A stretch of DNA of 55,604 nt from Bacteroidaceae bacterium (GTDB lineage: Bacteria; Bacillota_I; Bacilli_A; RF39; UBA660): assembly GCA_963616135.1 (NCBI GenBank), contig CAVEJT010000002.1:1-55604 (forward strand). The letters run 5' to 3'. Below the pieces are notes generated by a model, which had not been told where the DNA came from, made no database searches, and saw nothing but the letters and a program-made list of their open reading frames with translations. Both the position numbers and the translations under genes were made by a program. Shown piece after piece: positions 3,284 through 44,848 of this stretch (its first letter is position 1; each line of letters begins with the position of its first letter).

Positions 3284-4144
3284 ATGTCAAAAATAATAAC
3301 CATTCCATCTAGTATAGATGAAATAAATAAAACATTAGATATAATAGATGGTTTTATAATTGGAATAGATAATATGAGTGTTAATACTAATTTAAATATA
3401 TCAATAAATAGTATTAGTATATTAGATGATTATAAAGATAAAGATATTTTTATTTCTTTAAATAAAAATATGCATAATATAGATTTGAAACATTTGAAAG
3501 ATATTATGATTAAACTAAATAACTATAATATAAAAGGTGTTTTATATTATGATGTTGCAGTATTACAAATATATAAAGAAATAAAACCTAATTATGAATT
3601 AGTATGGTCACAAGAACATTCAACAACTAATTATAGTACAATTAATTATTGGTATGAGAAGGGTGTTAAATACACATATTTATCTAGTGATATAACTTTT
3701 GAAGAAATAAAAGAGATTAAACAAAATAGTAAATCAACATTATTAGTAAATTTATTTGGATATTTACCTATGTTTGTATCTAAAAGACATATAGTTAAAA
3801 ACTACTTAAATTATTTTAAATTAAAAGACTCTTCAAAAATTAATTATATGGAAAAAGAAAATAAGATATATCCTATAATAGATAAAGAGATTGGAACTAT
3901 GTGTTATTCTAATAATATATTAAATGGATTAAAATATAGTTTAGATTTACTTGATTGTTATATAGTATTAAATAGTTTAGATATTGATTTAGATAAATTT
4001 ATTTGTGTTATTAATTTATTTAGAAATGTTAATAGTAAAAATATAGAAGAAAGTAATAATAAAATAAATAATATGTTTAATAATGTAGATTTGGGATTTC
4101 TAGAAAAAAAGACAATATATAAGGTGAAGAAAAATGATAAATAA
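3284..4144 (+). CDS. peptidase U32 family protein, YrrN/TrhP-type (tRNA ho5U34 synthesis partner)
   Basis: Overlaps and precedes a canonical U32 gene and lies upstream of greA, as in my recollection of the B. subtilis yrrN-yrrO neighbourhood. Weak U32-like sequence (SQEHSTTNY). Confidence 0.55.
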   Translation: MSKIITIPSSIDEINKTLDIIDGFIIGIDNMSVNTNLNISINSISILDDYKDKDIFISLNKNMHNIDLKHLKDIMIKLNNYNIKGVLYYDVAVLQIYKEIKPNYELVWSQEHSTTNYSTINYWYEKGVKYTYLSSDITFEEIKEIKQNSKSTLLVNLFGYLPMFVSKRHIVKNYLNYFKLKDSSKINYMEKENKIYPIIDKEIGTMCYSNNILNGLKYSLDLLDCYIVLNSLDIDLDKFICVINLFRNVNSKNIEESNNKINNMFNNVDLGFLEKKTIYKVKKNDK

Positions 4145-5932: not shown

Positions 5933-6646
5933 ATGTTATTTAGAAAAGCAATTTTAATAGTTCATGGATTTGCAGGAGGCACTTATGATGAAGAGGCTTT
6001 AGCAAACTATCTAGAACTTAATAAATTTTATGATGTATATCAATTTACACTACCAGGTCATGAAAAAAATTTAAGTAAGGTTAAATATAGTGAATGGATT
6101 AGTGCAAGTGAAAAACAAATAGAGTGGTTAATAAGTAAAGGTTATAACAAAATTTATTTATTAGGTCATAGTATGGGTGGAGTAATTGCTACATACTTAG
6201 CTTCTAAATATAGTGAGGTAAAAAAACTAGTTTTAGCCGCACCTGCTTTTCAATATTTAGATGTAATAAAAGATAATTTAAATGTCACAAAATCACTTAA
6301 GATGACTCCGAAAGTAATAAAGACTTATGGTGGAGATGAAATATTTGCTAGACTCCTTAAATTAAATCCAAGTGCTATAAGAGAATTTATGTCATTAATA
6401 AAAGAATATTATAATTATCCAAAAGAAATAAAATGCCCAATATTATTAATACAAGGAAAAAATGATAATTTAGTGCCACTTACTTCTGTAAAATATGTAT
6501 ATGATAGTGTAAAATCTAAAGAAAAAAAATTAGTTTATGTAAACTCTTTAACACATGATATTTTTAGAAGTAATAGAGATGAAGAGATTTATAAACTAGT
6601 AGAAGACTTTTATAAAAAGGGTGGTAGTGGTATATCAACAATATAG
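5933..6646 (+). CDS. alpha/beta hydrolase (carboxylesterase/monoacylglycerol lipase-like)
   Basis: HGFAGG oxyanion region, GHSMGG nucleophile elbow, C-terminal His (LTHDIF). Start moved to the ATG at 5933. Confidence 0.8.
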   Translation: MLFRKAILIVHGFAGGTYDEEALANYLELNKFYDVYQFTLPGHEKNLSKVKYSEWISASEKQIEWLISKGYNKIYLLGHSMGGVIATYLASKYSEVKKLVLAAPAFQYLDVIKDNLNVTKSLKMTPKVIKTYGGDEIFARLLKLNPSAIREFMSLIKEYYNYPKEIKCPILLIQGKNDNLVPLTSVKYVYDSVKSKEKKLVYVNSLTHDIFRSNRDEEIYKLVEDFYKKGGSGISTI

Positions 6647-6710: not shown

Positions 6711-7733
6711 ATGAAAACTGATGATTTTGATTTTTACCTACCAGAGAATTTAATCGCACAAACACCTTTAGAAAGACGAGATTCTTCAAGATTATTAATA
6801 TTGGATAAAGAAACAGGAGAAATTACACATAAACATTTTACAGATATAATAGATTATTTAGATAAGGATGATATATTAGTTTTAAATGATACAAAAGTAA
6901 TGCCTGCAAGACTTTATGGTGTTAAGAATGAAACAAATGCAGTAATAGAAATACTTATGTTAAAAGAAAAAAATAAAGATGTTTGGGAATGTTTAGTAAA
7001 GCCAGCAAAAAGGGTAAAGGTAGGTACAGTTGTAAAATTTTCAGATGAATTAAACGCAGAATGTATAGGTATAGGTGAGGAAGGCATTAGAATATTTAAA
7101 TTTAATTATAAAGGAATATTCTATGAAATATTAGATAAATTAGGAGAGATGCCATTACCACCATATATTCATGAAAAATTAAAAGATAAAGATAGATACC
7201 AAACTGTATATGCTAAAAATATAGGTAGTGCAGCCGCACCAACAGCGGGCTTACATTTTACAGAAGATTTAATAAAAAAAATAAAAGCAAAGGGTATTAA
7301 AATGGAGTATATAACACTACATGTTGGACTTGGAACATTTAGACCTGTTAATGTAGAAGATGTAACAAAACATAAAATGCATAGTGAATTTTATCAAATG
7401 AGTAAAGAAGTGGCTGATGTTTTAAATGATGCTAAAAAGAACCACAAAAGAATAATAAGTGTTGGTACGACTTCTACAAGAACACTTGAAACAATAATGA
7501 ATTTATATGGTGAATTTAGAGAATGTAGTGGTTGGACAGACATATTTATATATCCTGGGTATAAATTTAAGGCAATAGACTCATTAATAACAAATTTTCA
7601 CTTACCTAAAAGCACATTAATAATGTTAGTAAGTGCTCTAGCTAGTAAAGAAAATATAATGAATGCATATAAAGAAGCAGTTAAAGAAGAATATAGATTT
7701 TTCTCATTTGGAGATAGTATGTTTATAAAGTAG
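6711..7733 (+). CDS. queA: tRNA preQ1(34) S-adenosylmethionine ribosyltransferase-isomerase QueA
   Basis: [30 protein letters not shown] and [10 protein letters not shown] motifs. Confidence 0.95.
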
Positions 7734-9383: not shown

Positions 9384-10571
9384 ATGAGATGTGTAGGTAC
9401 TGTTGTTAGAGGTATAAGAACACCTATAATAAAAGAACATGATGATTTAGCTAATATAGTTGTAGATTCACTTATGAAAGCTAAAGAAAGTGAAGGATTT
9501 GAATTTAGAGATAGGGATGTAGTTGCTATAACTGAGGCAGTTGTTGGAATTAGTGAAGGTAATTATGTTACTGTCGATGATGTTGCTTTGGACGTACAAA
9601 ATAAGTTTCCAAGTAAAAATATTGGGGTTGTATTTCCAATATTAAGTCGTAATAGATTTTCTATTATTTTAAAAGGTATAGCTCGTGGTATGGATAAAAT
9701 TACTATGTTACTTAGTTTTCCATCAGATGAAGTTGGAAATGGAATTTTAGATGAAGATTTATTAGATAAAAGTAAGTATAATTTATCAAGTGTTATAACA
9801 GAAGATGAATATAAAGAAACTTTTGGTTCTTGGATACATCCATTTACTGGTATTAATATGGTGGATTTTTATAGAGAACTAATTGAAAGTGAGAATTGTA
9901 AAGTAGAGTTTGTGTTTGCTAATGATCCAAAAGAAATACTAAACTATACACAAGATGTACTTAACTGTGATATTCATACAAGATTACGTACAAAAAAAAT
10001 ATTAGAAAACTCTGGAGCTCATACTGTTTATGGACTTTATGAGGTTATGAATAAGTCTATTAATGGTAGTGGATTTAATCCAGATTATGGACTTTTAGGT
10101 TCTAATAAATCAACTGAAGAAAGATTAAAGTTATTTCCAAAAACAGGTGATAAGTTAGTTTTAGATATTCAATCTAAATTAAAAGATTTAACTGGTAAAA
10201 ATATAGAAGTAATGGTATATGGTGATGGAGCATTCAAAGATCCTGTTGGACATATTTGGGAACTTGCTGATCCAGTAGTTTCACCTGCGCACACTAACGG
10301 TTTAAATGGGACTCCTAATGAAATAAAACTTAAATATGTATCGGATAATAAATTTGCTAATTTAAAAGGTGAAGAATTAAAAAATGCTATTAAAGAAGAA
10401 ATAAGAAATAAAGATAAGAATTTAAAAGGTCAAATGATTACTCAAGGAACTACTCCAAGAAGAATAACTGACTTAATAGGTTCACTTTGTGATTTAACTA
10501 GTGGTAGTGGAGATAAAGGTACACCTGTTGTATTTATTCAAGGATATTTTGATAATTTGGCAGATGAATAG
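9384..10571 (+). CDS. CofE-like (F420-0:gamma-glutamyl ligase family) protein, function unknown in Firmicutes
   Basis: The N-terminus MRCVGTVVRGIRTPIIKEHDDL and DRDVVAITEAVV resemble the CofE-like family as I remember it. Start set at the ATG at 9384, after AGGAGGG. Confidence 0.5.
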   Translation: MRCVGTVVRGIRTPIIKEHDDLANIVVDSLMKAKESEGFEFRDRDVVAITEAVVGISEGNYVTVDDVALDVQNKFPSKNIGVVFPILSRNRFSIILKGIARGMDKITMLLSFPSDEVGNGILDEDLLDKSKYNLSSVITEDEYKETFGSWIHPFTGINMVDFYRELIESENCKVEFVFANDPKEILNYTQDVLNCDIHTRLRTKKILENSGAHTVYGLYEVMNKSINGSGFNPDYGLLGSNKSTEERLKLFPKTGDKLVLDIQSKLKDLTGKNIEVMVYGDGAFKDPVGHIWELADPVVSPAHTNGLNGTPNEIKLKYVSDNKFANLKGEELKNAIKEEIRNKDKNLKGQMITQGTTPRRITDLIGSLCDLTSGSGDKGTPVVFIQGYFDNLADE

Positions 10572-21487: not shown

Positions 21488-21895
21488 ATGAGAAATAAGA
21501 AAGGTTTTACTTTAATAGAGTTATTAGCTGTAATCGTTATTTTAGCAATCATTGCATTAATCGCAACTCCAATAGTATTAGGTATAATAGAAAATGCAAG
21601 AAATAATGCCAAAAATCGTAGTGCAGAACTTGTAATTCAATCTGTTGAATTAGCTTATAGTACGGCATTTATGGAAAATAATGGTAAAGCACCTGCTATA
21701 GCAGATGTACAAAAAGCATTCAAAATGGATAAAGCTAATTGGAAAGTAGAAGATAGTAAAATGACTATAACTACTGACGATGGTGTTACATGTACAGTAG
21801 CTACTACAAATAATAATTTAGTAGTTACTTGTGATGCTAAAGATAGTAATGGTAATAATTATAAAACTTCAACATCAATGGAATTAGCTCAATAG
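21488..21895 (+). CDS. prepilin-type N-terminal cleavage/methylation domain protein (type IV pilin/pseudopilin-like)
   Basis: KKG|FTLIELLAVIVILAIIALIATP class III signal, with Glu at +5 relative to the predicted G|F cleavage site. Small C-terminal globular domain with 2 Cys. Confidence 0.85.
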   Translation: MRNKKGFTLIELLAVIVILAIIALIATPIVLGIIENARNNAKNRSAELVIQSVELAYSTAFMENNGKAPAIADVQKAFKMDKANWKVEDSKMTITTDDGVTCTVATTNNNLVVTCDAKDSNGNNYKTSTSMELAQ

Positions 21896-32448: not shown

Positions 32449-32528
32449 AGAATAGTTTTACATTATTCTCTTTTAGTTTACAAAATTAGAAAAATATGAT
32501 ATATTATTTTTAGTTAGTGAGGGATATT

Positions 32529-33767
32529 ATGAATATGCAAAGGACTTATTATGATATACTAGGAGTAGAACAAGATGCGAGTTTTGAAAATATAGAGAAA
32601 GCTAGAAATAGGATGAAATATGGTGAACCCGAAGATAGAGTTCCTTTTAGAATGTGGAAAGATGTAGATGAAGCTTATGATGTATTATCAAATCCAATAT
32701 CTAGAAAAAACTATGATGAATCATTAAAAGAAAAGAAAAATGAACCAACACCAGAGCCAACACCAGAACCAGAGCCAACATCACAACCAGAGCCAACATC
32801 ACAACCAGAGCCAACACCACAGTCAGAGCCAACACCAGAGCCAGAGCCAACACCAGAGCCAGAGCCAACACCAGAACCAGAGCCAGAACCAAAATCAGAG
32901 TTATATAATCAATTCAATGAACAACAATTAAATCCTTCTAAATTTAATTCATTTATGAAAAGTAAAGTAAAACCAAAAGCAATTAAAATTGGAGAATATT
33001 TGCCAGTATTGGCATTACCATTACCATTTGCAATAACTTTTGCTTTTGTTCAAAAACATTTATATAAAAAATATGGAAAAGGTGCAATAACTTTAATTCG
33101 AGATAATCATATTAAAAAGATAAAAGATTTAAAAATAGAAACTGGAGTAATGGATTTAGAGAAAGAGTATGAAGAAAAATTATCAAATGAAATAGATAAT
33201 TTATTATCAAAACCTCATAATAACTATAGTCTTCAAATAAAAAAGCTTAGATATCAAAATCATTTAGAATTGTGGAAAAAAATGTTTGAGACTAAATTAA
33301 ATGAAATTCAAAAAAACAAGTCCAGTTTGAAAACTAGGTTAGAGTTAATTTCAATAAAAAATCAAATATTAAATTCAGAGTCTAAATTGAAAAGAATAGA
33401 AAATTCTATAGAAAAATATAATAAAATTACTAATGTAGGTGTATTAAAAAATGATGAATTTGAATTTGAGTCTCGTTTATCTAGATTAAATAAATCAATT
33501 TCAGATAAAATGCAAAAAATAAATGATATCAAAGATGATCCTAATTCTTTGAAATTAGAAAAAGAACAGTCAAAATTAAAAAAACTTGTTATAAAAAGAA
33601 ACATAAAGGGTTCAAAAATTAAACTTCAAAAGGGTGGTATTGGTAAGGTAGCTAAGTTATCAAATCCTAATATAATAACAACCCATAATGTAAAGAAAAT
33701 GGATGATAGTGAATTTATTAATTATATAACTGATTTTTCTAATGAAAAATCAAGTAAAGTAAAATAA
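32529..33767 (+). CDS. J-domain-like membrane protein with a Pro/Glu/Thr repeat linker and a coiled-coil tail
   Basis: YYDILGV...[15 protein letters not shown] frame of a J domain, but no HPD tripeptide. PEPEPT repeats, one TM ([17 protein letters not shown]), K/E-rich C-terminus. Confidence 0.6.
32742..32890 (+). repeat. in-frame tandem repeat (12-18 nt units, CCAGAGCCAACA-type) encoding (E/T/S/Q)P-rich repeats
   Basis: Directly visible reiteration of ccagagccaaca(cca/tcacaa) and ccagagccagagccaaca. Confidence 0.9.
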
Positions 33768-42100: not shown

Positions 42101-42256
42101 TATAATGGTGATGATGAGGTAACAGAAGCTGTATCTGAGTTTGAAGAATTTATAAAAAATGAAACCTTATCAGTAGACATAGTAGTTAAATTCAATCTAA
42201 CTGAAGAAGTTGATTTAAATGGTCATATGACTTATATAGATGTAGAAAAAGTTTAA
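39158..42256 (+). CDS. ileS: isoleucine--tRNA ligase, type 2 (eukaryote-like, ~1030 aa)
   Basis: FYDGPATANGMPGIHHMLAK (HIGH region), KMHKSKGN (KMSKS), and editing-domain TTPWTL. The length and N-terminus fit type-2 IleRS. Confidence 0.97.
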   Translation: MKFKELDKRKNSDVESDLTEKFIKEDLLEQTIENRKNSENFVFYDGPATANGMPGIHHMLAKLLKDTYCKYKTMQGFRVLRKVGWDTHGLPVEVQVEKELGFNGKGDIEKYGIKAFNEKCRESVWKNEAAFKDFTNKMGQFIDLKHPYITYDNNYIETEWWILKKFFDEGLIYNGLKILPYCPRCGTGLASHEVAQGYKEITVNTVTVPFKVKNQDNTYLLIWTTTPWTLMSNVAACVNPNEVYVKCLSKGYNFIVAEKLANKVLGDDYEVVEKYKGKDLEYLEYEQYLDFLKVNKKAFFVTCADYVTMEDGTGIVHMAPAFGQDDYEVGLKYDLPMLNPVDENGCYKEGPWKGRLVVDPELEIEIIKYLSSHDKLFKKQKMVHNYPHCWRCKTPLVYYSKPSLYIKVTDFKDKIIEANKTVNWHPDYVGEKRFGNWLDNLNDWAISRNRYWGTPIPLWECECGHKEMIGSRKELVEKSIEDIDETIELHRPYVDDVHIKCSKCGKAMTRITEVIDCWFDSGSMPFAQYHYPFENKELFESQFPADFISEGIDQTRGWFYSLLVISTFVTGKSPYKNVLVNDLITDKFGHKMHKSKGNAVEPFTVIKKYGADPIRWYMLYTSPVWTPLRFDEDGIKEVQSKFFNTLKNTYAFFSMYANIDNIDPKEYDIKYEDMEEIDKWLLSKYNKLVRKVTNSMDNYDLTTSVREIQNFVAEDLSNWYIRRNRRRFWASINDTSKLAVYKVTYDVLVGVCKLIAPFAPFTSEEIYTKLTGNKSVHLADYPKCDETLINEKIESRMDLVRDLISLGRNIREEVKIKVRQPLTEALLDAKNKSLISDLVDLIKEELNVKEVKFISDVENYMNFTVKPNFKEVGRTFGPLIKEFQEKLLNLSTEDISKLQNNEIIKMTIGDKEWDITHSMVDIRTNSKEGFDVATDSNNFIIINTELTNDLIMEGIARELVSKVQNMRKAKDFDIADRITLYYNGDDEVTEAVSEFEEFIKNETLSVDIVVKFNLTEEVDLNGHMTYIDVEKV

Positions 42257-42258
42257 TA

Positions 42259-42287
42259 TTGACTAATAAAACATAATAATATATAAT
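42259..42287 (+). promoter_or_regulatory. near-consensus sigma-A promoter TTGACT-17-TATAAT
   Basis: TTGACT at 42259-42264 and TATAAT at 42282-42287, starting 3 nt after the ileS stop. Confidence 0.6.
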
Positions 42288-42354
42288 TAACATAGTAAAG
42301 GTAGTGGTAGTATGATGAAGATATCATTAAGAAAAATCAATAAAAATAACACCT

Positions 42355-42364
42355 GGGGGGGGGG
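42355..42364 (+). repeat. G10 homopolymer tract
   Basis: cctGGGGGGGGGGtatc read directly. I noticed no other G or C run of comparable length in the window. Confidence 0.95.
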
Positions 42365-42400
42365 TATCTAGTTATACTATAATACTATTAGAATATACAA

Positions 42401-42448
42401 ACACAAAGATCTAGAGAATAAAACTCTAGGTTTCTTTGTGTTTTTTTT
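42401..42448 (+). terminator. intrinsic terminator / attenuator upstream of the pilin-like gene
   Basis: Stems acacaaa/tttgtgt and ctagag/ctctag with a small internal loop, then T8. Confidence 0.7.
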
Positions 42449-42488
42449 ACATACCTTTACAAAAGTAAAACAAAGGAGGAGGAAATAT

Positions 42489-43634
42489 ATGAAAAGAAAA
42501 GGATTTACATTAATAGAATTACTAGCAGTCATAGTAGTGCTAGCAATCATTGCACTTATAGCAACACCAATAGTACTAAATATAATAGAGAATAGTAAAG
42601 ATTCAAGTAATAAAAGAAGCATAGAATTATATGGAAGTGCGGTAGAACAAGCAGTAGCAAGAGAAGAAATAAATGGTAATGCTTTACCTAGCGGAAAGTA
42701 TACGACAGAAGATGGTAAAACATTGAAACAAGGTGATATAGAATTCGAAGTAGATTATAAAGGATCTAAAGTAGTATGTGATGTGAATATAACGAGTGAT
42801 GGAGAGGTATCATTAAAGAATTGTAAAGTAAATGGAAAAGCAACAGAATATACATATGGGGATGATGAAATTCCAACACCAAAATCATTTGGAGAAGATT
42901 CTTGGGAAACAATAGTAGCAAATGTCAAAGCAGGAAATACAAGTGCATATAAAGTAGGAGATACAAAGGAAATTAAACTAGAAGGTTTTACAAATGAAGA
43001 AGAAAATAGTAATGGATTATATACAATAAGAATAACAAACAATTCAACACCAGAAGAATGCAATACAGAAGGTTTTTCACAAACAGCATGTGGATTTGTA
43101 ATAGAATTTGTAGATATAATAACAAGACGTAAAATGAATCCATCAGGAAAATATAAAGGGACACAATATGGCTTTGGATGGAATGTAGATGGATGGCCAG
43201 CAAGTGAAATGAGAACATATGTAAATAATAATATATATAATGCATTGCCAGAAGGATTAAAAGAAAATATAATAAATACAAAAGTAGTATCAAGTCATGG
43301 TTCTACAAGTGGAGAGACAAATTTTACATCAGAAGATAAAATATATTTATTATCAACAAAAGAAGTATGGGGAAAAGAAGGAACAACTGATACAATAAAT
43401 TATGATACAGCAGAATCAGAGACAAGACAATTAGATTATTATAAGGCAAATGGAGTAACAACAGCAAATTATTCAGGAGCAATTAAGAACTATAATGGAA
43501 GTCCAGGGTATTGGTGGCTTCGTTCTGCTTATTCCTATTATAATTACAAGTTCTACGACGTGAGCCTCATTGGCCTTTGGAACACCACCAATGCTAGTGA
43601 TGGCAATGGCGTGGCTGTGGCTTTCCGAATTTAG
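42489..43634 (+). CDS. prepilin-type N-terminal domain protein with a large C-terminal WWLRS-type (DUF6273-like, lectin-fold-like) domain
   Basis: KRKG|FTLIELLAVIVVLAIIALIATP signal. C-terminal EDKIYLLSTKEVWG...GYWWLRSAYS...GVAVAFRI. AAAGGAGGAGG RBS. The track ORF start at 42438 is over-extended. Confidence 0.8.
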   Translation: MKRKGFTLIELLAVIVVLAIIALIATPIVLNIIENSKDSSNKRSIELYGSAVEQAVAREEINGNALPSGKYTTEDGKTLKQGDIEFEVDYKGSKVVCDVNITSDGEVSLKNCKVNGKATEYTYGDDEIPTPKSFGEDSWETIVANVKAGNTSAYKVGDTKEIKLEGFTNEEENSNGLYTIRITNNSTPEECNTEGFSQTACGFVIEFVDIITRRKMNPSGKYKGTQYGFGWNVDGWPASEMRTYVNNNIYNALPEGLKENIINTKVVSSHGSTSGETNFTSEDKIYLLSTKEVWGKEGTTDTINYDTAESETRQLDYYKANGVTTANYSGAIKNYNGSPGYWWLRSAYSYYNYKFYDVSLIGLWNTTNASDGNGVAVAFRI

Positions 43635-43695
43635 TATCGATTAAAAGTATTTGGATTTTTTAAAAGAAATGTAATAGAACAAAAAGATAACAAAC

Positions 43696-43722
43696 AAAAA
43701 TAGTGTCTAACACTATTTTTTT
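43696..43722. terminator. bidirectional intrinsic terminator shared by the pilin-like gene and rodA
   Basis: atagtgt-cta-acactat stem with a flanking A-run and T-run. Confidence 0.65.
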
Positions 43723-44848
43723 AATTTCTATATCTTATATTTTCATTTGATATATTAAATATTATTCCTGCCATAATCATATAACTTAAAAGACTTGATC
43801 CACCATAACTTATAAATGGTAGTGTAATACCTGTAATAGGCATAAGACCTAAAGTCATACCAATATTTTGTAATTGTTGATATATAAGCATACCAATAAT
43901 ACCACTTATAACGTATTTATTTATATTATTTGGATTTTCAACTGCTAATTTAATTAGTCTTAAATCAAAAAAAGTAATAAGTCCTAAAAGACATATAGAA
44001 CCAATAAAACCAAAGTTATTAGCAAATACAGCAAATATAAAATCTGTTTGAGGTTCTGGAAAATATATTGGGGTATTATTAATTCCATAACCTAGCATAC
44101 CACCACTACCAATAGAGGTAATACCATTTTCAAGTTGATATCCACTACCACTTGACCAATCTAATAATCTATCTACTCTAAGAAAGAAAGAGGTACCAAA
44201 TATTTTAATAAATAAGTCAGTATTAACAAAGTATGTAATAAGTATGATACCAATTATAACACCAAATATACCAAACAATATAGCAAACCATCTATATCTA
44301 ATTCCAGATACAAAAAGCATTACTAAAGTAATTAACAAATAAATAAGTACAACACCAGTATCAGGTTGCAAGAACGTAAGAATAGCAGGTATACCTACAA
44401 CAATACATACTTTGAGTAAAAATTTAAATTCTTCTGCTATAGTAGGATCTGGGTAATCTTCTTTAAAATTGTTAATCATTCTACCGTTAATAATAATTAA
44501 TATAATTTTCATAAATTCACTAGGTTGAATATTACCAATACCTTTAATTTTAAACCAACAACGAGCATTATTGATATCAGCACCCCAAAATAATACTAAT
44601 ATTAGTGAGATAACTCCTATTATATATAGTATCCAAGCATTTTTATACAGAAAGTTATTACCTGCAATCATGACTAAATAAATGATTATAAATCCGATAG
44701 AATACCAAAGTACTTGTTTTAACATTAAATTAGTTTCTTCACCTAGTAAATTTTGAGCACTCCCAATAGTTATAATACTTATTAAAGCAAATAAAACTAT
44801 ACATAAAAATATACCAATATCCACTTTAAATCTTGATATGTTTTTCAT
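43721..44848 (-). CDS. rodA: SEDS family peptidoglycan glycosyltransferase (RodA/FtsW)
   Basis: ~10 TM protein. QPSEFMK, TDFIFA, PITGITLPFISYGGSS motifs. Confidence 0.9.
   Translation of the reverse strand: MKNISRFKVDIGIFLCIVLFALISIITIGSAQNLLGEETNLMLKQVLWYSIGFIIIYLVMIAGNNFLYKNAWILYIIGVISLILVLFWGADINNARCWFKIKGIGNIQPSEFMKIILIIINGRMINNFKEDYPDPTIAEEFKFLLKVCIVVGIPAILTFLQPDTGVVLIYLLITLVMLFVSGIRYRWFAILFGIFGVIIGIILITYFVNTDLFIKIFGTSFFLRVDRLLDWSSGSGYQLENGITSIGSGGMLGYGINNTPIYFPEPQTDFIFAVFANNFGFIGSICLLGLITFFDLRLIKLAVENPNNINKYVISGIIGMLIYQQLQNIGMTLGLMPITGITLPFISYGGSSLLSYMIMAGIIFNISNENIRYRN

Follow-up and report, generated by a model that had tools for sequence, protein, structure and literature searches.

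The DNA analyzed here is contig CAVEJT010000002.1 of assembly GCA_963616135.1 (positions 1 to 55,604; hereafter the window, which is the whole contig of 55.6 kb). Its overall G+C content is 25.6%, and 41.8% of its bases are adenine. Between ileS and ftsW lies a gene for a modular protein with a type IV pilin N-terminus and a C-terminal DUF6273 domain. We focused on the 3' end of this gene (43518-43634), which an initial annotation of the bare sequence had put forward as the variable region (VR) of a diversity-generating retroelement (DGR) separated from the rest of its machinery. In a DGR, a reverse transcriptase (RT) and an accessory protein copy an RNA that bears the template repeat (TR), misincorporating nucleotides at TR adenines. 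The resulting cDNA then replaces the VR, and the initiation of mutagenic homing (IMH) element anchors its 3' end.

The base composition of the gene flips close to its end. Codons 1-343 (42489-43517) are 45.7% adenine, and their third positions are A in 203, T in 102, G in 28 and C in 10 cases. In the last 38 codons (43518-43631), adenine falls to 21.1% and G+C is 45.6%, with 14 C, 18 T, 5 G and 1 A at the third positions. The counts in the initial annotation, for the A-rich body with its roughly ten C-ending codons and for the C-rich last 38 codons, were reproduced exactly. For comparison, all 14,757 in-frame 38-codon segments were taken from the 51 open reading frames (ORFs) of at least 100 amino acids (aa) in the window. 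The number of C-ending codons per segment had a median of 1 and a 99th percentile of 5, and the maximum of 14 was that of 43518-43631 itself; its adenine fraction lay at the 0.1th percentile of the same set. The flip at 43518-43631 is far beyond chance. The change begins near 43470-43500. The only other stretch in the window with a G+C fraction above 0.42 is an 18-nucleotide (nt) tandem repeat at 32716-32931, which has at least nine copies and encodes a Pro/Glu/Thr-rich linker within the ORF at 32517-33767.

A cassette related to the gene gave the template for comparison. The closest homologue of the window protein is P0004 (70% identical). A search with the RT of another cassette, L023, led to the RT P0199, which is encoded on the same 39,654-bp contig as P0004 (ena:ERZ15610075 NODE_1101; L027/L029). 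The order within this cassette (L027) is the target P0004, a 182-aa ORF, a TR (9634-9739), an RT-2 RNA and an RVT_1 RT, which lies 1.1 kb downstream of the target. The RT-2 RNA (Rfam RF03077, 74 bits, full length) fills the TR-RT spacer at 9797-9988, and its presence there would tie this orphan RNA motif to DGR template RNAs. All of the 13 mismatches between the L027 VR and its own TR fall at TR adenines (13/13). The L027 TR aligns with the window segment at 86 of 106 positions, without gaps and with both flanks identical, and the aligned block plus its 3' tail agrees almost exactly with the boundaries first proposed. Of the 20 mismatches over 103 nt, 14 hit TR adenines, of which there are 35, and 6 are spread over the 68 remaining positions (hypergeometric P 2.8e-4). 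A related TR, L034, has A at two of these six sites, and non-adenine changes beside mutated adenines are also present in a bona fide cis VR (L030, three such changes). The claim that the segment is the VR of a DGR target is therefore supported by a homologue that is itself a cis target, with a TR that aligns to the segment and a VR that departs from that TR only at adenines.

The pattern of variation agrees with adenine-directed mutagenesis at the level of codons. Among 129 homologous VRs, column entropy was 3.33, 2.64 and 0.81 bits for TR codons with two, one and no adenines, respectively (Spearman rho 0.89). Differences between the window VR and that of L027 number 10, 17 and 2 at codon positions 1, 2 and 3, in keeping with the initial expectation that AAY codons are turned into NNY codons (Y, pyrimidine); against the VR of L001, a Hadza gut contig, the numbers are 11, 15 and 2. 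The DUF6273 coding DNA at 43248-43523 is 98-100% identical to L027, and identity drops to 68% in the VR. When 25 homologues were aligned, the body was conserved and the 34 residues after WWLRSA alternated between fixed and free, with the scaffold consensus WWLRSAxSxxTxxFxxVxxxGxWxxxxANxTxGVAVAFRI. The window and L001 share the flanks TGGTGGCTTCGTTCTGCT and GGCGTGGCTGTGGCTTTCCGAATTTAG, synonymous sites included, and nearly all of the differences between their VRs are confined to positions 1 and 2 of NNY codons. From this, a TR of AAY codons was predicted.

The 3' boundary of the segment has the character of an IMH. Homology between VR and TR stops after GTGG, and the next 11 nt are those of the L027 VR, not of the TR. 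The whole stretch 43608-43631 is identical to the 3' ends of the L027 cis VR and of the VRs of L001, L036 and L037. The element GGCGTGGCTGTGGC, singled out at the outset as IMH-like, sits exactly where VR/TR homology ends in the L027 cassette. Judged from sequence comparison, the DGR reading of the segment is supported. The features of the locus are collected in Table 1.

Table 1. Features of the pilin-like gene, its diversified 3' end and its surroundings. Coordinates are those of the window unless a contig is named.
Feature	Position	Strand	Basis
TR-homologous block (VR in the broad sense), TGGCTTCGTTCTGCT ... GGCGTGGCTGTGG	43515..43620	+	Ungapped alignment to L027 TR 9634-9739
Diversified core of 26 codons; the 20 with adenine in the L027 TR are variable, among fixed Ser, Phe, Val, Gly, Trp and Ala	43530..43607	+	Column entropy, codon differences
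IMH-like 3' end: GGCGTGGCTGTGG (43608-43620, as in the TR), then CTTTCCGAATT, against ATTTCTGTATA in the TR	43608..43631	+	VR/TR comparison
Modular type IV pilin-like gene, 381 aa: prepilin N-terminus, variable pilin head, DUF6273 with C-terminal VR	42489..43634	+	ORF, Pfam, NCBIfam
Class III (prepilin) signal peptide and hydrophobic alpha-1: MKRKG/FTLIELL, Gly -1, Phe +1, Glu +5	42489..42566	+	Pfam, NCBIfam, PDB profile search
Globular DUF6273 domain, aa 128-381, VR forming the last beta strands	42870..43631	+	AlphaFold2, mean pLDDT 95.8, pTM 0.92 (predicted confidence scores)
Leader with G10 tract (42355-42364) and terminator-like hairpin (42407-42433)	42255..42488	+	Also in the L027 cis target; the syntenic orthologue lacks it
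Degenerate AT-rich remnant where relatives have the post-VR stem-loop	43647..43690	+	Not alignable, no comparable fold
Hairpin ATAGTGT-CTA-ACACTAT between A-run and T-run	43695..43723	.	Sequence reading and folding
Post-VR stem-loop in relatives	L027 8930-8985; L001 11172-11227; L002 11188-11244; L030 4908-4966; L034 1065-1124; L037 ~6175-6235

The protein that carries this segment is modular. Pfam recognized N_methyl at aa 2-25 (E 1.6e-7) and DUF6273 at aa 235-380 (E 9.7e-20), and NCBIfam matched IV_pilin_GFxxxE, with TIGR02532 also matched at the N-terminus. The protein begins with MKRKG followed by FTLIELLAVIVVLAIIALIATP, with glycine at -1, a hydrophobic residue at +1 and glutamate at +5, as in prepilins. 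In a profile search of PDB sequences, the N-terminal ~45-75 profile positions matched the type IV pilins PilE1, MshA and PilA. The window protein has about 7000 matches in the database, and most of the best 120 combine a type IV pilin N-terminus with DUF6273; the window protein itself forms a database cluster of one member, without a near-identical relative. The full-length structural model had a long N-terminal helix (residues 8-61) and was dropped as too poor (mean pLDDT 67.7), and the domain was remodelled alone with a deeper alignment. Foldseek matched this model to phage DUF6273 tail-fibre or receptor-binding proteins among viral models (E down to 4.6e-14, template modelling (TM) score ~0.7), and the best match in PDB was 9qa6, the Thomasclavelia ramosa IgA peptidase (E 1e-5, TM score 0.55 by query length). 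This peptidase may carry a DUF6273-like substrate-binding module, to judge from the model comparison. In published work, DUF6273 is a C-type-lectin-like domain that DGRs target, the VR lying at its C-terminal end (PMC10743442, PMC11792537). The window VR thus lies in a ligand-binding fold by virtue of DUF6273, and the assignment of that fold to C-type lectins rests on PMC10743442. The prepilin N-terminus would anchor the protein in a pilus or pseudopilus, and its role is likely that of a variable adhesin. Of the window ORFs examined, none was recognized as pilus machinery; in L002, a T2SSE ATPase gene lies ~8 kb from the paralogue.

Cassettes of the L027 type are surrounded by housekeeping genes, and no phage genes are visible nearby. 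Mismatches between VR and TR at adenines and at other sites number 22 and 0 in L034, 23 and 0 in L033, and 16 and 3 in L030. L030 and L033 encode an identical RT protein and have different cis VRs; these cassettes are therefore active. The accessory ORF is always 182 aa long (L027 9034-9582, L030 5023-5571, L034 1183-1731, L040 425-973). It had no significant Pfam match and no match among PDB sequences. The accessory ORF in a viral DGR (L003 2672-3136) shares 30% identity with it (E 1e-22), which suggests a distinct accessory family for DGRs targeting DUF6273. Pattern scans of viral, genome and metagenome contig collections revealed other DGRs with the scaffold WWLRSAN.NN..F..V...G....A. in the viral contig L003, where the DGR is complete, in several Clostridia and in metagenome contigs. 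The strict pattern of the predicted TR had no match in the viral contigs, and the scan of genome contigs returned only TRs of higher-GC Clostridia.

Several other candidates for the reference or source template were discarded. L023 was not retained as the reference cassette because 33 non-adenine mismatches separate its TR from the DUF6273 gene next to it. The low-GC metagenome TRs L018 and L023 fit the window VR worse, with 21-22 non-adenine mismatches, and neither L034 nor L040, whose RTs are 76-79% identical relatives, fits better than L027. L003, found with a looser pattern, is an unrelated high-GC viral DGR and was used as an independent example, not as a source TR. Two RT contigs end at the TR or just short of it: L039 (1-268) begins inside the 3' end of a TR and L038 (1-188) begins ~75 nt downstream of one. 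Both ends presumably reflect assembler collapse at the TR/VR repeat, which would explain the frequent lack of DGR cores in bins that contain their remote targets.

None of these DGR parts accompanies the VR in the window. No TR was found there by exact and inexact repeat searches or by an adenine-tolerant scan, and no RT by an RT-motif scan or by tblastn with P0199 and the L023 RT (best E 0.98). Neither the two DGR RTs nor the accessory ORF gave a tblastn match to the window better than E 0.3, and neither RT-2 RNA nor any other Rfam family was present in the window at threshold. The initial annotation had called the segment an orphan in the window, without TR copy or RT, and rightly so; the TR, RT and accessory gene it proposed to look for were absent from the 55.6-kb contig but all present in the cassette of the closest homologue.

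The window copy also differs from its relatives downstream of the VR. A conserved stem-loop of ~60 nt, AAAAACATTCGGTAGATGAGCTCCGAACGAGAGTGAGGACGATACGAATGTTTTT, follows the cis targets of L027, L030 and L034 and the non-adjacent targets of L001, L002 and L037. It consists of a 12-bp outer stem and a conserved interior of ~36 nt (AAAAACATTCGG...GAGCTCCGAAC...GAGGACG...GAATGTTTTT) and matched no Rfam family. It is half eroded in L036 and nearly intact in L037. A role as a terminator only was not adopted for it, the 36-nt interior being conserved across lineages with differing VR scaffolds. Efficient retrohoming in phage BPP-1 depends on a hairpin immediately downstream of the IMH (PMC3240598). 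By the same reasoning, the stem-loop may be a target-recognition element of this DGR lineage, and the window copy, which lacks it, may be a poor retrohoming substrate.

The history of the locus can be read from a sister strain. The window shares its gene order (sepF, divIVA, ileS, target gene, ftsW, histidine kinase gene, tmk, ltaS) with L036, a contig from the Hadza gut, and ileS is 97.5% identical between the two. The L036 target at the same site has a wholly different VR, with T-rich third positions and 17 non-adenine mismatches to the TR, and across 43248-43523 it is only 84-95% identical to the window, below the value for L027. By blastn, window 42255-42674 matches L027 7556-7974 (86% over 422 nt), which comprises the 230-nt leader and the first 62 codons, and codons ~60-125 resemble neither L027 nor L036. 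Since the leader, N-terminus and DUF6273 module are nearest L027 and the flanks are nearest L036, the gene is, on sequence grounds, a recombinational patchwork of at least three sources. Identical VR peptides also occur on bodies that differ by indels and substitutions (P0002/P0008 and P0014/P0015), which suggests that paralogues trade VRs, or whole C-terminal modules, through recombination. The window VR may have arrived by recombination with a cis-type copy.

From these results we conclude, with a probability of roughly 0.85, that 43515-43631 is a DGR-written VR on a modular type IV pilin, orphaned in this window and probably static. In the TR of this family, AAY codons stand between adenine-free scaffold codons, with a GC-rich IMH at the end. 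A VR written from such a template is depleted of adenine and rich in NNC and NNT codons and stands out in a 25% GC genome, so that we read the composition flip as the mark of a TR-derived, adenine-randomised sequence. The C-terminal DUF6273 module, lectin-like in fold, carries the diversified beta strands. Most likely, a DGR wrote the VR, and recombination between paralogues then brought it to this locus or kept it there, a route that we infer. On balance, we favor a VR that is no longer rewritten.

Two explanations would dispense with a DGR altogether, and a non-DGR origin of the VR is, in our view, highly improbable. That a tail rich in Tyr, Ser, Asn and Gly merely uses C- and T-ending codons has practically no chance of being correct. 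The encoded peptide is indeed rich in residues with Y-ending codons, but the same residues take A- and T-ending codons elsewhere in the gene, the scaffold codons are identical to those of L027 and L001 at synonymous sites too, and 14 C-ending codons in 38 is the top value among the segments drawn from all window ORFs, a comparison by which chance can be excluded. It is also very unlikely that recombination or gene conversion brought in the 3' end as a mosaic piece, whether from a GC-richer homologue or from a silent cassette, with the variability of the homologues due to ordinary diversifying selection. Such a view draws on the mosaic nature of the gene and on the identical VRs found on different bodies, by which VRs appear to move through recombination. 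However, the GC-richer stretch stops exactly at the TR-homologous block, and genes of the donor type are equally AT-rich outside the VR. The variable codons are those with adenines in real TRs, with their third positions retained, cis VR/TR pairs differ only at adenines, and the window contains no silent cassette or repeat of the segment. The mosaic explanation is thus largely refuted by the TR alignment: the initial annotation, which had raised it as an alternative, was right that recombination shaped the gene, but mosaicism is not the cause of the composition flip.

Whether the VR is still being rewritten is a closer question. A DGR elsewhere in the genome could supply TR, RT and 182-aa protein in trans and act through the intact IMH, and the six non-adenine mismatches would then merely reflect a slightly different TR of that genome. 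Several observations speak for this possibility: a working cis VR has the same IMH-like end and the same two scaffold flanks, third-position C has not eroded as in the syntenic L036 VR, a TR variant with A at two of the discordant positions exists (L034), the VR is wholly unlike that of the sister strain in spite of near-identical ileS genes, and RT/TR contigs assemble poorly (L038, L039), so that a cognate DGR could easily be missing from a bin. We nevertheless consider it unlikely, as the conserved post-VR stem-loop is absent and at least one mismatch (AAG) matches no TR seen. Moreover, the DUF6273 body and the leader are also of the L027 type, which recombination explains and retrohoming cannot. 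In three clusters of near-identical paralogues, the VR is invariant or nearly so: variable columns in VR and body number 1 and 17 among 10 variants of the syntenic orthologue, and 0 and 26 and 0 and 18 among 8 variants each of two others, even though the one member examined, L037, has a nearly intact stem-loop. The sister-strain comparison proposed in the initial annotation therefore gave a mixed answer, in that the VR of L036 differs from that of the window while the clusters of 8-10 variants have 0-1 variable VR columns. The clusters with fixed VRs and the missing stem-loop make present activity as a remote target, which that annotation envisaged, rather unlikely.

Some observations weigh against the conclusion of a DGR-written, probably static VR. 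Six of the 20 mismatches to the best TR lie off adenines, including AAT>AAG and ACT>AAT. No TR or RT from the source organism was found in the material searched, namely the 55.6-kb contig and public collections. The lectin-like fold anticipated at the outset holds as far as DUF6273 is concerned (Pfam and the phage DUF6273 models), but canonical C-type lectins in PDB are only weak structural matches (E ~1). The case for inactivity draws on other paralogues and on consensus assemblies, and the requirement for the stem-loop is argued solely by analogy with BPP-1. The window VR also looks fresh, with C-rich third positions and perfect flanks, which fits a recent rewrite in trans equally well.

A broader scheme can be offered tentatively. 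Low-GC gut Firmicutes may harbor a chromosomal, non-phage DGR lineage characterized by a 182-aa accessory protein that would not be Avd-like, an RT-2 RNA and a large conserved post-VR stem-loop, with modular type IV pilins bearing a DUF6273 tip as its substrates. The cis target would be actively rewritten and driven by a poly-G phase-variable promoter, copies seeded repeatedly around the chromosome by recombination, their VRs becoming fixed, would form a heritable archive, and the window gene would be a recent entry. If true, this archive would be a heritable store of DGR-written adhesin specificities. DGRs, DUF6273 targets and remote targets are all known, and pilin-fused targets are barely described; the single published reference to a pilin-fused VR that came to our notice speaks in passing of a 'GspG-type pilin' domain (PMC11661182). 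The present case indicates that a DGR VR in an AT-rich genome can be recognized from raw composition alone, even without a nearby retroelement, and points to a large, barely described set of DGR targets in gut Firmicutes, given the ~7000 database matches. Whether the scattered paralogues are live remote targets or fixed records of past diversification bears on adhesin variation in gut bacteria.

Other features of the window concern expression and related genes. Poly-G tracts stand in the leaders of the L027 (G11, 7655-7665) and L030 (G10, 3684-3693) targets as well as in that of the window gene, in a genome of 25% GC, and the L030 tract sits between TTGACA and TAGAAT. The poly-G resembles a tract for phase variation by slipped-strand mispairing, placed in the promoter of DGR-target pilins. 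The hairpin at 43695-43723 probably terminates transcription in both directions, serving the target gene and the convergent ftsW-like gene (43721-44848, minus strand) alike; a consensus terminator scanner omits it, its stem having too few G-C pairs. A second small prepilin-type gene (21488-21895, 135 aa) stands by itself, flanked by a germination protease gene and der/engA. Over the first 96 nt it is 80% identical to the target gene, and it has a weak DUF4330 match and no DUF6273.

The system resembles the known DUF6273 or C-type-lectin-like DGRs (the Faecalibacterium prophage DGRs and the 'tentaclin' phages, with Mtd of Bordetella phage BPP-1 as the prototype) in its C-terminal VR in DUF6273, in a TR of AAY codons among a fixed scaffold (WWLRSA..F..V..G..A..), in adenine-specific VR/TR differences, a GC-rich 3' IMH and an RT downstream of the TR, and in an accessory ORF homologous to that of the viral DGR at the identity given above. 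It differs from them in its target, a chromosomally encoded type IV pilin fusion in place of a phage tail protein, in the housekeeping genes that surround related cassettes and in the lack of any DGR machinery with the window copy. The accessory ORF is without Pfam or PDB match, with no direct comparison with Avd, and the short GC hairpin of BPP-1 contrasts with the 12-bp stem around ~36 conserved nt in the relatives of the window gene.

Remote, non-adjacent DGR targets have been documented, for example the TvpA paralogues of Treponema denticola and the Lineage 4 DGRs (Wu et al. 2018, PMC5758913). As in those systems, several paralogous targets here occupy unrelated places on the chromosome, have the TR-homologous block and IMH in common, and belong to elements that are not phage-associated. 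Membership in that class demands only A-to-N differences from a TR of the same genome, with minor exceptions, and the TR used here comes from another assembly. In contrast to those targets, the paralogues here have VRs fixed across near-identical variants, and many may be fossils. Modular type IV pilins such as PilB of Streptococcus sanguinis (PMC8179133) likewise combine a class III signal peptide pilin with a grafted C-terminal module, and display is expected; the module here is instead a DGR-diversifiable DUF6273, no pilus machinery genes are seen among the window ORFs examined, and incorporation into a filament is a prediction. Finally, Bacteroides DGRs that act on Type V pilus adhesins (bioRxiv 10.1101/2024.11.15.621889) are also gut DGRs, chromosomal or borne on integrative and conjugative elements, that vary the adhesive component of a pilus, but they differ in pilus class (Type V against a type IV N-terminus), in phylum and in target architecture.

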